A stretch of 64,000 bases of DNA. Source: an uncultured Tenacibaculum sp. (GTDB lineage Bacteria; Bacteroidota; Bacteroidia; Flavobacteriales; Flavobacteriaceae). Positions 1-16,904 of this stretch are shown in pieces. Position numbers and translations under genes: made by a program. The notes below the pieces were generated by a model. That model worked only from the letters and a program-made list of their open reading frames with translations. It was not told where the DNA came from and made no database searches. The DNA is taken from contig CANMCD010000009.1 of assembly GCA_947496185.1 (NCBI GenBank), positions 88,115-152,114 of the forward strand, written 5' to 3'. The first letter of the stretch is position 1. Each line of letters begins with the position of its first letter.

Positions 1-3000
1 CCTATGACATTATCAATTTGTGGGTGTACATTGTCTCGTTCAAAAACCGTTAATACAATACCAAAGTGATTTTCACCTCCCCAAGCGGACAACACTTCAG
101 AGAAAAGGGTTAGCAATGCTGCTGAAGGCGTTAATTGTTGTTGGGTTGCCTCCTTAACAAACGCTGACCAAATTTCTTGAGTAAGCAGTTGTTCTTTTCT
201 CCCAAACCCACTAAAAACATGATTTCTACTAATATCAACAGGTAACTTGGGTGCTTCAGGAAGTGTTTCTATTCGAGCTGTCCAATAGGTTTTATCTATT
301 TGATACCTATTCCCCTCTTTTCTTCTTTCTAGGTAACTTACATAGTCTCTAAAAGAAACTGTTATCGGAGCTAAGCTTTGGCCTTGGTATATTTTGTATA
401 AATCTTTCCAAAAAATATTAATACTTAAAGCATCTGAACTGATAAAATCCAATCCAAAATGAATCATCCAATTATTGGGTGCCATTTCCGTTAACCTCAA
501 CTCAAATGATGGTGTACCGTATGCTGGAGTTCTCACCGCCATGACATTTTTTATATCAGCTATATGCTTCGTTATATTTTTAATTTGAGAATAGGTATAA
601 ACTTCTGGGGTGTATTTTAAGACGGGGAGAATTTGCTGTTTTCCGTCTCTATGATTGACGGAGCGAAGCATTTCGTGTCGTATTATTAGTTGATTCAATG
701 CGGCTGTAAATTTTGCTACATCTAGGTTTCCTGCTAAAATTTCCATATAACCATAACAGGTAAATCCTCCCCAAGCTATTTCAGGATTTTTACCTACGAA
801 ATAGGCATTTTGTACTTCTGTAAAATTGAATTTTTCGTGTCTGTTTTTTTCATCTATCACAAATGCAATCGCATCTTCTACCTCATCTCTTTCATTGCTT
901 TTTATTTTTTCAAGAATAATTTCTGCCCAAGCAGCAATCGTTGGTTTTTTAAAAAATAAGACTGGTTTTAATGAAAGGCTAAGTGCTGCTCTCCATTTCT
1001 TCAATAGTCTGGTGACTGCAATAGAATCTATTCCTAAGACCAACAAACTTTCGTCATTACGTAACTCTTCTTCTTCAAACCCGAATCTCCTCAAAAGCGT
1101 CTGTCTTATAAAAATAATAACCTCTTCTTTGGTTTTCAGTTGGTGAATTGAGGATACTAGGTTGTTTTCTTGTGCTTCAAAAGATGTTTCTTGCTCTCTA
1201 ATGGCGTTTTGAATAACCGCCATTATTCGGGGCAAATGTTTTCTTTCTGCTGCTGATAGACTGTTTTGATCTATAAAACGTTCTAGGTTTTGAAAATCTA
1301 TACCTGTTAACGTACTAGTGCTCTCTTTATCTTCTTTAACACGTATATTCTTTTCATTAAACTTATAATTTGGAACAAATACTTTGGTAAAATTTGCTTT
1401 GTTATAGTACTGCTTCCAATCGATATCGACTCCAAAACCGTCCAAATAAAATACACTTTTTTCGATTTGTTTCGAAGTTGTTTCTTCTTTACTATTAATA
1501 AACTGAACGTCTATTTTTTCTCCTAAAATGTTTTCTATCTTTTCCGTAAGTGCTCCTGTTGATCCCATTTCAAGAAATATGTAATCTTGAGGATTTTTGA
1601 TCGATTGTATGATTTTCATAAATCGAGTTTGTCCTAAATTTAACACCTCCCAATAACGAGCGGAAGCAACTTCTGTTCTCCCTATTGCTCCCGTGACGTT
1701 GGATATAAACCGTCCTTTTGGTGCCGAATATGTAAATGCTTTTGATATCGCTTCAAATGTTCTTCCTTGGCTACTTATTAGTCTTATCGCATGTTCTAAA
1801 CTCATTACATTATCCAAACATCCAGCAACATATTCTCCTATACCATGCCCCATAAAGTAAGTGGGTTCTATACCGTAATGCATCGATGTTTTTGCTAATG
1901 CGTATGCTACTGCAAAAGATGCCACTTGTATGGATTGGGTTTCGTGTAATTGATCGTTATTGGAAAATATATAGGGAATGAAGTCCTCTCCTGTAATTTT
2001 TTGATAATGCGTATTACACAGGATTATATTCTTTTTAAATATTTCATTTTCTTTATAAAACGTCTTACACACATAAGGGCACTTCGACCCCTCATTACCA
2101 AATAAAAATATTATTTTTTTATGCTTTGAAATAATCGTGTCATCAATGTTTGTATTTTCTTTCAAAGCAAGTGCTAAGTTTCTCAAAAGCTCTTTACGGT
2201 CCTTTGCCCAAATAACAACTCTTGACTTTTGCTGTACTCTGGATATGTTTTGGCTATAGGATAGGTCTTTCATAGAGACCGTTGCTTGTTGTTCAATATA
2301 AATCTTAAAACAAGCTATTTGATTTTTTAATGCCGATGAGTTGACTGCCGAGAATCTGAATGGCCATTTTTTTTCAACATCGGTCGTTACTTCTTTTGCT
2401 GTTTCTTTTATAAGGCTTTTGTATTCTTGTAAAACAATATGGGCATTGGTTCCTGATAAACCAAATGAACTTACTGCTGCAATTCTATTTCCTTTTTCTT
2501 TCTGCCATGTTATATTTTTTTGAGCGACTTTTATAGGAATATTTTGCCAGTTAATATGCGTAGATGGTTTTTCAAAATTTACATTGCCTGGGATGGTTTT
2601 ATTCGTTAGTGCTAATACTGTTTTTATCACTCCCGCAACCCCTGACGCTGCTTCTAGATTTCCTATAGCAGATTTTATGGCACCTAAATATAATGGAGCC
2701 TTTCTCTGTTTGCCTACAACATTGGTCAAGGCGCTAACTTCTATCGGATCGCCAATTTGGGTTCCTGTTCCATTTGTTTCCATAAAATCGATATCTGTCG
2801 ATTTTATTTTACTACGTTCCCATACTTGATGTATCAGTTTTTCCTGTGAAGGACCATGTGGTGCTGTAAGCCCTGCACTTAATCCGTCTTGATTTACACC
2901 ACTTGCACTAATTATTGCATGAATCTTATCTCCGTCTTTTTCTGCCGCTGATAATCTTTTTAAAATTACCACACCACATCCTTCCCCTCTTACAGTTCCG

Positions 3001-15908: not shown

Positions 15909-16904
15909 ATGGGGTTCAAAATTTATGATACAGAAGTAAGCGAGATACTTTATAACGCTCAAAATACAACCTATAAAACTGATTTAATAGGGAATACTGA
16001 ATTTAAAAGTAACTTTAAACATAAAAACTTTAATGGCTCTTTTAAAGAAATTAGATTACAAAATTTTAGAATTAGCTATAGTAATAGTAATTTTTCTAAA
16101 ACTACAGATTTGCTGTTCGATTTTGGAGGAGAATCCGTAGAAATGCACTTCACGTTAAAAGGAAATAGCAAGTGTAAGATTAAAAATACAAATATTGACT
16201 TTGAATACACAAACAACTTTCATAACATTTTGTACAGTAGCTCTATACGAGGTGAAATTACCTTTTCTTCACCACATGTTTCTTTTCTTGAAATAAATCT
16301 ACATCCGCATTTTTTTGAGAAATATTTACCCAATGAAGAGCTATTCGCACAATTTAAAGAACTTATACAGCATAAAAAAACGAGTTTTCTTGGAGGGCAC
16401 AACTTTCCTATTACTGCTGAAATGATGAATATCATCCAACAAATCATCACGTGTAAATGGGAAGATAACTATAGGTCTTTATTTTTAGAAGCAAAAGTAT
16501 TAGAACTTTTACTATTGCAATTAGATCAAATTTCTTCATACGATATAAGCTTAAGCTACAAAAAGACGAGTTCTGAAGAAATCATTAATAAAATGATGCT
16601 AGTTCAAGAAATCATCCTTAACAAATTGGATGAAAACCTCCTCTTGTCAGATTTAGCTAAAATTGTATACACCAATACGTCTACACTTAAAAAAGAATTT
16701 AAAAAACTTCATGGAATAACGGTAGGTAAATACATTACTGAGAAAAAAATGAATAAAGCCAAAGAGCTTTTGATAAAAAAAGGACTTTCCATTCGAGATG
16801 TATCTGAAGCAATAGGGTATAAAAATCCGCAGCATTTTTCAACAGCGTTTAAAAGAGAATTTGGTTTTAGTCCTAGTATGTTAAAACAAAAGGTTATTAC
16901 CTAG
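15909..16904 (+). CDS. AraC family transcriptional regulator (PchR/YbtA-like)
   Basis: Likely start MGFKIY at 15909 within ORF 15516-16904; FLEAKVLELL, double HTH LSDLAKIVYTNTSTLKKEFK...VSEAIGYKNPQHFSTAFKREFGFSP; divergent from TBDR. Confidence 0.88.
   Translation: MGFKIYDTEVSEILYNAQNTTYKTDLIGNTEFKSNFKHKNFNGSFKEIRLQNFRISYSNSNFSKTTDLLFDFGGESVEMHFTLKGNSKCKIKNTNIDFEYTNNFHNILYSSSIRGEITFSSPHVSFLEINLHPHFFEKYLPNEELFAQFKELIQHKKTSFLGGHNFPITAEMMNIIQQIITCKWEDNYRSLFLEAKVLELLLLQLDQISSYDISLSYKKTSSEEIINKMMLVQEIILNKLDENLLLSDLAKIVYTNTSTLKKEFKKLHGITVGKYITEKKMNKAKELLIKKGLSIRDVSEAIGYKNPQHFSTAFKREFGFSPSMLKQKVIT

Follow-up and report, generated by a model that had tools for sequence, protein, structure and literature searches.

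A candidate fatty-acid-primed metallophore pathway of the coelibactin/sorangibactin type on a genomic island of an uncultured Tenacibaculum

In the draft genome of an uncultured Tenacibaculum species (G000, 3.99 Mb), a stretch of 64,000 nucleotides on contig CANMCD010000009.1 (C9:88115-152114; hereafter the window) carries at its left end part of a gene cluster that combines nonribosomal peptide synthetase (NRPS), polyketide synthase (PKS) and transport genes. Taken as a whole, the cluster is probably a coelibactin/sorangibactin-type NRPS metallophore pathway that is primed with a fatty acid, a reading to which we assign a probability of roughly 0.6. Judged by sequence, the cassette downstream of the starter appears to be that of the coelibactin/sorangibactin/anthrochelin/bulbichelin family. 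This cassette is known; what is new is that a fatty acyl-AMP ligase (FAAL) with its acyl carrier protein (ACP) and a naturally pruned PKS starter take the place of the salicylate starter, and we do not regard the cluster as a new kind of system. The predicted product, probably a metallophore, is a lipopeptide of the 2-alkyl-thiazoline–bis-thiazolidine type.

An earlier note, written from the DNA of the window, had placed the locus at 1-16904 and had recognised no characterised pathway in its architecture. That span holds only half of the locus: the 2558-aa megasynthase continues past base 1, and six further biosynthetic genes lie to the left of it. Downstream of the starter, the architecture is that of the sorangibactin/coelibactin cassette.

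Assembly line and tailoring cassette

The lipid starter is a 722-aa FAAL-ACP protein (3798..5966, minus strand) with AMP-binding, AMP-dom_DIP2-like and PP-binding domains. Its best matches in the Protein Data Bank (PDB) are all fatty acyl-AMP ligases (3kxw, 7r7e, FadD23, FadD32 and 3pbk), which bears out the FAAL assignment of the earlier note. The next gene, at 3-3794 on the minus strand, runs off the left edge of the window as a ketosynthase (KS)-acyltransferase (AT)-ACP-heterocyclisation (Cy) frame. In full (L003:233-7909:-), the megasynthase is 2558 aa long and reads KS-AT-ACP-Cy1-A1-PCP1-(TubC-type dock)-Cy2, where A and PCP denote adenylation and peptidyl carrier protein domains. The ACP of its PKS module (918..1109, minus strand; PF00550) has an intact LGIDS motif, with Ser924 at 1023-1025, and the N-terminal part of Cy1 (1..842, minus strand; Condensation domain) carries DFISSDALS at 423-449. 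With this DxxxxDxxS motif in Cy1 and its counterpart DLMFIDALS in Cy2, the Cy domains are genuine.

The downstream genes lie on the same strand and encode, in order, a type II thioesterase; A2 with an embedded methyltransferase (MT) followed by PCP2 (1131 aa; L001:11727-15122, minus strand); a saccharopine-dehydrogenase-NADP-binding (Sacchrp_dh-like) oxidoreductase of the SrbE/MchE kind (366 aa; L001:10613-11713, same strand as the megasynthase; PF03435); an Irp3/YbtU-type thiazolinyl reductase; a glyoxalase-like/VOC protein (PF13468, Glyoxalase_3); and a terminal NRPS of 1840 aa, dock-Cy3-A3(MT)-PCP3-thioesterase (TE) (L001:3208-8730, minus strand). The Irp3/YbtU-type reductase scores 290.5 bits against TIGR01761 (cut-off 188.8), has the Irp3-like_C domain PF21390 and matches YbtU/Irp3 in the PDB with an E-value of 6e-35. 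The Sacchrp_dh-like protein has no match in a PDB sequence search. Inspection of the DNA left of base 1, which the earlier note had proposed, turned up three A domains and a terminal TE. The pocket residues of A1, A2 and A3, with positions placed by motif anchoring, read DL[YF]N[FL]S[ML]IWK, which we take to be of the Cys type.

All carrier serines of the assembly line are present, and the MT embedded in A3 has a canonical GxGxG motif. The terminal TE reads GYCLG (residues 1613-1617 of the 1840-aa NRPS), with an active-site Cys instead of Ser; GYCxG is also found in the homologues from Streptomyces, Sporomusa, Aquimarina, L018 and L019, whereas the Chryseobacterium TE has Ser. The N-terminal 190 aa of the A2-MT-PCP protein (L001:14523-15122, minus strand) gave no Pfam match at a relaxed threshold and are unlike Cy domains; this conserved extension may be a docking partner for the C-terminal Cy2 of the megasynthase. 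Neither a Chorismate_bind nor an aryl-ligase gene is present in the island, and a salicylate starter is thus absent.

Comparison with characterised pathways and relatives

In the sorangibactin biosynthetic gene cluster (BGC), SrbE is a Sacchrp_dh NADP-binding protein and SrbJ a glyoxalase-like/VOC protein, both essential and of unresolved role, and SrbI is an Irp3-like thiazolinyl imine reductase (PMC10127202). The Sacchrp_dh, Irp3 and Glyoxalase_3 genes of the island lie in the same order as SrbE, SrbI and SrbJ. Sorangibactin carries tandem N-methyl-thiazolidines and a gamma-thiolactone, and its terminal TE, that of SrbD, has an essential Cys nucleophile of a rare kind, with a proposed release of the chain onto homocysteine or methionine (PMC10127202). 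Anthrochelin and bulbichelin, which together with sorangibactin were characterised in 2023-2026, also have a thiolactone and a Cys-TE, the Cys-TE proteins being AntB and BbchF (PMC13573596). The mupirochelin cluster has the same trio of tailoring genes together with an AraC regulator, TonB-dependent receptors (TBDRs) and an ABC (ATP-binding cassette) ATPase with a membrane protein (PMC10080011). The characterised members of the family are all salicylate-capped and all metal binders (PMC10127202, PMC13573596, PMC10080011).

The island shares with sorangibactin-type BGCs the tailoring trio, three heterocyclising modules with A-embedded MTs, the TubC-dock-Cy-A-MT-PCP-TE(Cys) protein and the type II TE. 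It differs from them in lacking the salicylate synthase, the aryl-AMP ligase and the aryl carrier protein (ArCP), in whose place it has FAAL-ACP and a dead KS-AT-ACP; in lacking a P450 and a stand-alone MT; and in its presumed uptake through a Bacteroidota-type XusB lipoprotein and a TBDR. With pyochelin and yersiniabactin it has in common Cy domains, Cys-type A domains, an A-embedded MT, a PchG/YbtU-type reductase, a type II TE, an AraC regulator and a TBDR, but those pathways have a salicylate cap, a TE with Ser and no Sacchrp_dh or VOC proteins, and that of yersiniabactin has a working PKS module in mid-chain. A FAAL also starts the thiazoline/thiazolidine metallophore line of micacocidin in Ralstonia, which uses an Irp3-type reductase. 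There, however, the FAAL feeds an iterative KS-AT-ketoreductase (KR)-ACP that makes 6-pentylsalicylate; in the island there is no KR, the KS triad reads Cys-Asn-Asn and the AT is gutted, so that no aromatic cap is expected from it. Bilothiazoles, lusichelins and fatuamide were considered as close matches and set aside, all being salicylate-capped, and a literature search found no paper on a FAAL-primed member of the sorangibactin-type family.

The Sacchrp_dh-like protein is rare: it falls into 30 clusters among 5.8 billion proteins, and all examples examined lie in this cassette. Within the Flavobacteriaceae it was found in two of 400 other species, sampled over 302 genera. The core common to all contexts examined is [A-MT-PCP]-Sacchrp_dh-Irp3-(Glyoxalase_3)-[dock-Cy-A-(MT)-PCP-TE], and the proteins of the locus are 35-58% identical to their counterparts in relatives. 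The glyoxalase-like protein is 41-49% identical to that of the equivalent gene in five related loci, Streptomyces included. The classical, coelibactin-like form is seen in a Streptomyces sp. (L017), where an ArCP-Cy-A-PCP-Cy-A-MT-PCP megasynthase is accompanied by a chorismate-binding gene of the salicylate synthase type; this salicylate-type locus has the same cassette at 35-45% identity, and its NRPS-TE aligns over the full length.

The FAAL-ACP starter with KS-AT-ACP-Cy-A-PCP-...-Cy recurs in Aquimarina hainanensis, in Sporomusa and in the metagenome contig L013, with a nitroreductase/oxidase (Ox) Pfam match for P0018/L013. A word-indexed protein search with megasynthase residues 1-1000 returned mostly multi-KS polyketide synthases and one true relative, P0018. 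Another metagenome contig, L019, has ACP-Cy-A-PCP-Ox-Cy, the N-terminal part and the starter genes lying beyond the locus examined. Chryseobacterium vrystaatense (L023/L015) has FAAL-acyl-CoA dehydrogenase (ACAD)-ACP, KS-dehydratase (DH)-KR-ACP and an AT-less KS, followed by ACP-Cy-A-PCP-Ox-Cy; a TBDR gene, a DUF4374 gene and a flavin monooxygenase (FMO) gene lie upstream, and a phosphopantetheinyl transferase (PPTase) gene and a HAD gene lie within the cluster. It represents the same family with a more elaborate starter.

A disabled polyketide module

The KS and AT domains named in the earlier note are catalytically crippled. The KS domain (2421..3689, minus strand), aligned with CurL, has a Cys-Asn-Asn triad formed by Cys206 (3177-3179), Asn341 (2772-2774) and Asn379 (2658-2660): DTACSS with its Cys is kept, and ETNGTGT and KSAIGNLE stand for EAHGTGT and KTNIGHLE. 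What is left of the AT (1395..2069, minus strand) has GHGIG for GHSxG (Gly651 at 1842-1844) and an in-frame deletion of 84 residues that removes the region of the HAFH-type motif. All four relatives compared have Cys-His-His in the KS, and the three of them that have an AT keep both GHSxG and the 84 residues. With the KS triad, the AT motif and the AT small subdomain all altered, this is not an elongating type I PKS module, and chain extension is not possible. The megasynthase is in addition ~233 residues shorter between PCP1 and Cy2 than the three relatives aligned over their full length, and at this position Pfam places a nitroreductase/Ox domain in P0018, Chryseobacterium and L019.

The KS may act as a relay (KS0-like), or the module may be skipped. 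The KS0 domains of trans-AT PKSs likewise keep the active-site Cys and have lost the decarboxylation His, which implies an acyl relay without extension. They differ from the domain described here, which belongs to a cis-AT-type KS-AT didomain, has Asn for both His residues and has fully active orthologues.

An alternative that we consider unlikely is that the cluster is decaying and makes no product: loss of the KS would block chain transfer and silence the line, and the transport genes alone might remain useful, for example in pirating the metallophores of relatives. Several features agree with it. The catalytic changes, namely the two KS His-to-Asn replacements, the AT Ser-to-Gly replacement with the 84-aa deletion, the loss of Ox and the Asp/Glu-to-Leu change in Cy3, occur in this genome only; KS/AT has evolved faster than in the sister sequence, with an overall deviation at invariant positions of 15.1% vs 7.2%; and a transport module stands alone in metagenome-assembled genomes (MAGs). 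Other features argue against decay. Frameshifts downstream, which the earlier note had named as grounds for abandoning its proposal, are absent, and all 14 open reading frames of the island (among them those of 2558, 1840 and 1131 aa) are intact, with no stop in ~10,000 codons, in a genome of 33% GC where stops easily arise. Both deletions are in frame, and each takes out whole functional units. The KS, its Cys in place, shows the best conservation of all domains (73% identity to the sister sequence); its divergence from the outgroups exceeds that of the sister by 5-8 points, an asymmetry not seen in A1. No carrier serine has been lost, and the TE Cys and the motifs of the A domains are intact as well. 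In a leave-one-out comparison, the type II TE, A2-MT-PCP, Sacchrp_dh, Irp3 and NRPS-TE proteins deviate at invariant positions no more than other members do, and the deviation lies within the level of the relatives for six of the seven other proteins compared, the exception being the glyoxalase-like protein, which has the highest value (16.1% vs 6.0-11.3% in others). General decay of the cluster was thus given no support by this test outside KS/AT.

An inserted island

The 14 genes occupy 33.7 kb (C9:71322-105018, window -16792 to 16904), between a gene for a pyridoxal-phosphate (PLP) enzyme of Cys/Met metabolism on the left and one for a DinB-family protein (window 17057-17512) on the right. 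These two neighbours are adjacent, within ~150 bp, in eight congeners (G001, G004, G005, G006, G008, G011, G013 and G014; in G005, for example, at 3047120-3048268 and 3048276-3048728) and within ~1.3 kb in three more, and they are 34 kb apart in this genome. The block has a GC content of 36.1%, higher than the 32.9% of the genome and within the top 1.3% of windows of its size. Because the flanking genes adjoin in congeners without the cluster and the GC content is raised, the 14 genes form a single inserted, horizontally acquired island. The claim that biosynthesis, uptake, export and regulation form one self-contained unit is upheld, the 14-gene block corresponding to one insertion between backbone genes. 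We had considered the PLP enzyme as a supplier of homocysteine for a sorangibactin-like release; it was rejected, being conserved backbone that lies beside DinB in congeners without the island.

No orthologue of the megasynthase was found in the 24 other species of the genus, where the best match was 37% identical. A pattern scan of genome contigs with the KS-AT-ACP region gave no orthologue either, and one distant KS (27% identity) was all that it returned. The PruA protein of the host clusters at 90% identity or more with those of many named Tenacibaculum species, so that the 'marine Bacteroidota' of the earlier note is correct. Elsewhere in the genome of this host there are two other giant PKS/NRPS frames, at ~17-20 kb on C8 (6584 aa) and at ~38-40 kb on C10 (6083 aa), the latter with one in-frame TAA within the matched stretch.

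Uptake, export and regulation

Within the window, open-reading-frame listing and Pfam/NCBIfam scans show seven co-oriented genes on the minus strand (TBDR, lipoprotein, MATE, ABC permease, ATPase, FAAL-ACP and KS-AT-ACP-Cy) and a divergent AraC gene on the plus strand; all eight genes of the earlier note are therefore present with the domains that it gave. The gaps along the seven-gene run measure 19, 214, 2, 35, 269 and 3 bp. The four tight junctions given before are correct, except that one is 19 bp instead of 20, and internal promoters could lie in the two gaps left unlisted (214 and 269 bp). The Bacteroidota -7 promoter motif TAnnTTTG has no exact match in the three larger gaps.

The TonB-dependent outer-membrane receptor (783 aa; 13355..15706, minus strand) has Plug, TonB_dep_Rec_b-barrel and CarbopepD_reg_2 domains. 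Its best NCBIfam match is the myxochelin receptor MxcH (454 bits, under the cut-off of 925), and it shares 38% identity with the receptor encoded upstream of the homologous Chryseobacterium cluster. Beside it, across the 19-bp gap, lies the gene for a XusB-family (DUF4374) surface lipoprotein of 427 aa (12052..13335, minus strand; PF14298 at 35.8 bits, cut-off 25), in an arrangement of the Xus type. The N-terminus of the lipoprotein reads ...LFQSC|SNDDD, with SNDDD following the lipobox Cys; it matches XusB (PDB 9hqe) with an E-value of 6.5e-13 over an alignment that covers its C-terminal 170 residues only, and it is 45.5% identical to the product of the DUF4374 gene in the Chryseobacterium cluster. 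In Bacteroides, XusB is the lipoprotein that serves xenosiderophore uptake at the cell surface. As in XusAB of Bacteroides, the lipoprotein is encoded next to the TBDR; unlike there, the pair is embedded in biosynthetic genes, presumably for the cell's own product, and no XusC/PepSY gene was seen. The TBDR-XusB pair also lies upstream of the Chryseobacterium cluster, and a MATE gene is present in three other clusters.

The presumed exporter is a MATE efflux transporter of 465 aa (10440..11837, minus strand; PF01554; TIGR00797 at 172 bits, above cut-off), 43-50% identical to the MATE proteins of the homologous clusters in Aquimarina, L018 and L019. The next gene (7159..10437, minus strand) encodes a 1092-aa ABC-2-type permease, with ~11 transmembrane segments in residues 1-590, fused to a dead M1-peptidase-like domain. 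The protein itself has no Pfam match even at E=10, its C-terminal half included, and no PDB sequence match; its relatives carry the ABC2_membrane domains PF12730, PF12679 and PF12698 and are named 'ABC transporter permease/M1 family aminopeptidase' at NCBI. The C-terminal domain aligns with true M1 peptidases, but SQMMT...RY replaces the HExxH...E of distant relatives, so that the zinc ligands and the catalytic Glu are all replaced, as they are in every close relative. The dead state of the M1 domain is shared across a whole subfamily of ~1090-aa proteins from marine Bacteroidota, even by members with only 32% identity, and is therefore an old, maintained feature. The ABC transporter ATPase (295 aa; 6236..7123, minus strand; PF00005) is DrrA/GldA-like (TIGR01188 drrA at 182 bits, below cut-off) and is 71-78% identical to the ATPases next to the permease in the MAG contigs L026 and L027.

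The AraC-family regulator (15909..16904, plus strand), divergent from the operon, has HTH_18 and HTH_AraC domains. Its reading frame is open from ATG 15813; since homologues measure 326-331 aa, the start is probably ATG 15909, which gives 331 aa. The AraC protein encoded beside the related transport module of the MAG locus L027 shares 45% identity with this regulator over 326 aa. No NCBIfam model reached its cut-off (Btr, 52 bits vs 900), and the N-terminal 247 aa gave no Pfam match, also at a relaxed threshold, the C-terminal HTH_18 being the only recognisable domain. Just upstream of the probable start, in the TBDR/AraC divergent region, lies a perfect 21-bp tandem array of 3.6 units (15828..15903). 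With AraC likely starting at 15909 the array is intergenic, and it is probably non-coding operator or promoter DNA rather than an N-terminal KRKKRYA repeat of AraC.

Predicted product and alternative readings

In the pathway that we propose, the FAAL would adenylate a fatty acid and load it onto its own ACP (ACP1). Since the KS lacks both His residues and the AT is gutted, the acyl chain would be relayed without malonyl extension to the second ACP, either by KS0-type transacylation or by skipping. Cy1 and A1 would then add and cyclise Cys to give a 2-alkyl-thiazoline, and because there is no Ox domain this first ring would not be oxidised to a thiazole. Two more Cys-derived rings would follow, one made in trans by Cy2 with A2-PCP2 and one in cis by Cy3-A3-PCP3. 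Irp3 and the Sacchrp_dh-like enzyme are predicted to reduce these two rings to thiazolidines; the Sacchrp_dh-like enzyme is suggested as the second ring reductase because two thiazolidines would be matched by two reductases and because saccharopine reductases perform imine-reducing chemistry. The embedded MTs would N-methylate the thiazolidine rings, and the Cys-TE would free the chain, either hydrolysing it or passing it to an amino-acid nucleophile, possibly homocysteine or methionine as in sorangibactin. The lipopeptide would be exported via the MATE and/or the ABC-2 system, bind metal and, under the control of AraC, return to the cell by way of the XusB-like lipoprotein and the TBDR. The lipid-tailed azoline metallophore of the earlier note thus persists as the best reading, with the TBDR-XusB pair and MATE genes accompanying homologous clusters, and is revised in its rings: because the downstream cassette is of the sorangibactin/coelibactin type, one thiazoline and reduced, N-methylated thiazolidines, with release by a Cys-TE, are now predicted.

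Several observations weigh against the metallophore pathway as proposed: (i) The aryl (phenolate) cap, an oxygen donor in every characterised member of the family, is missing here. In relatives with a working KS a beta-keto/enol could mimic the oxygen donor of the cap; with the cap absent and the dead KS leaving no beta-keto/enol oxygen, the metal affinity of the product is uncertain. (ii) Cy3 reads LFLIADFAS (residues ~205-215 of the 1840-aa NRPS), with Leu at the first DxxxxD position, where relatives read E/DFLI(A/T)DW(A/T)S; this first acidic residue is lost in this genome only, and the last module could be impaired. (iii) Motif I of the MT embedded in A2 is LGGRTG, not GxGxG, in all seven family members compared, so the domain must be a pseudo-MT that has been conserved or else an MT of divergent sequence. 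(iv) For sorangibactin, A-domain codes wrongly pointed to Cys where the residue is Ser (PMC10127202). (v) A search for a Fur box gave no convincing site, the best matching 13 of 19 positions of the 19-bp consensus, at about the chance rate, with a Bacteroidota Fur motif that is itself poorly defined. (vi) The Srb, Ant and Bbch systems were compared by their published descriptions, the salicylate-type Streptomyces locus serving as the sequence proxy. (vii) A transport module occurs without biosynthetic genes in view in two marine Bacteroidota MAG contigs, L026 and L027, of which 17-18 kb were examined. One has AraC/TBDR/permease-M1/ATPase/Glyoxalase_3 beside a Fur gene, and the other has TBDR/XusB/MATE/permease/ATPase and a second permease. 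Both could serve uptake by 'cheater' cells. Because the module also occurs alone, its tie to the product of the island is by association only.

Some of these points, namely the missing phenolate or other hard oxygen donor, the missing Fur box and the modular transport genes found alone in MAGs, would also fit a functional cluster whose product is not a metallophore, which we judge slightly less probable again than decay: the cluster would then make a thiazoline/thiazolidine lipopeptide with membrane or antibiotic activity, self-resistance would be a possible role for the MATE and DrrA-type ABC genes, and TBDR, XusB and ABC genes would form an independent uptake unit for xenosiderophores or nutrients that travelled along. 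Mupirochelin, a member of the family, is a weak iron binder with anti-oomycete activity (PMC10080011), but all characterised relatives bind metals (PMC10127202, PMC13573596, PMC10080011), the TBDR-XusB pair accompanies the homologous cluster of Chryseobacterium, which belongs to a different family, as well, and the whole block was inserted as one unit.

Returning to the fatty-acid-primed metallophore pathway, a bolder version can be put forward, though we hold it to be improbable in its full detail. In this version the in-frame losses of KS, AT and Ox functions would have turned a 2-(2-oxoalkyl)thiazole-capped chelator, like that of relatives, into a cap-less N/S-donor 2-alkyl-thiazoline–bis(N-methylthiazolidine) lipopeptide, possibly thiolactone-terminated, that would act as a membrane-associated soft-metal (Cu/Zn) metallophore recaptured by XusB. 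If true, the sorangibactin family would gain its first lipid-primed member, and Tenacibaculum its first NRPS metallophore.

Implications

With the cluster and its relatives, a recently described metallophore family is extended by a lipid-primed branch. We found no described product for this branch, which occurs mainly in Bacteroidota and also in Sporomusa. The cluster may be useful for natural-product discovery and for the study of non-elongating KS domains. Orthologues with and without a working KS, AT and Ox provide a natural comparison of in-frame loss in an assembly line, or evolution by subtraction, and the same set allows one to ask whether acyl chains are still relayed by a cis-AT KS whose triad is Cys-Asn-Asn. 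The cassette also offers a handle on the SrbE-like reductase, the SrbJ-like VOC protein and the Cys-TE release, whose roles are unresolved in the literature. In the transport genes, a XusB-type lipoprotein is presumably linked to the uptake of a self-made compound rather than of a foreign siderophore. Tenacibaculum includes fish pathogens and has so far been known for hydroxamate siderophores, and the acquisition of an island that probably serves metal uptake bears on niche adaptation in the genus.

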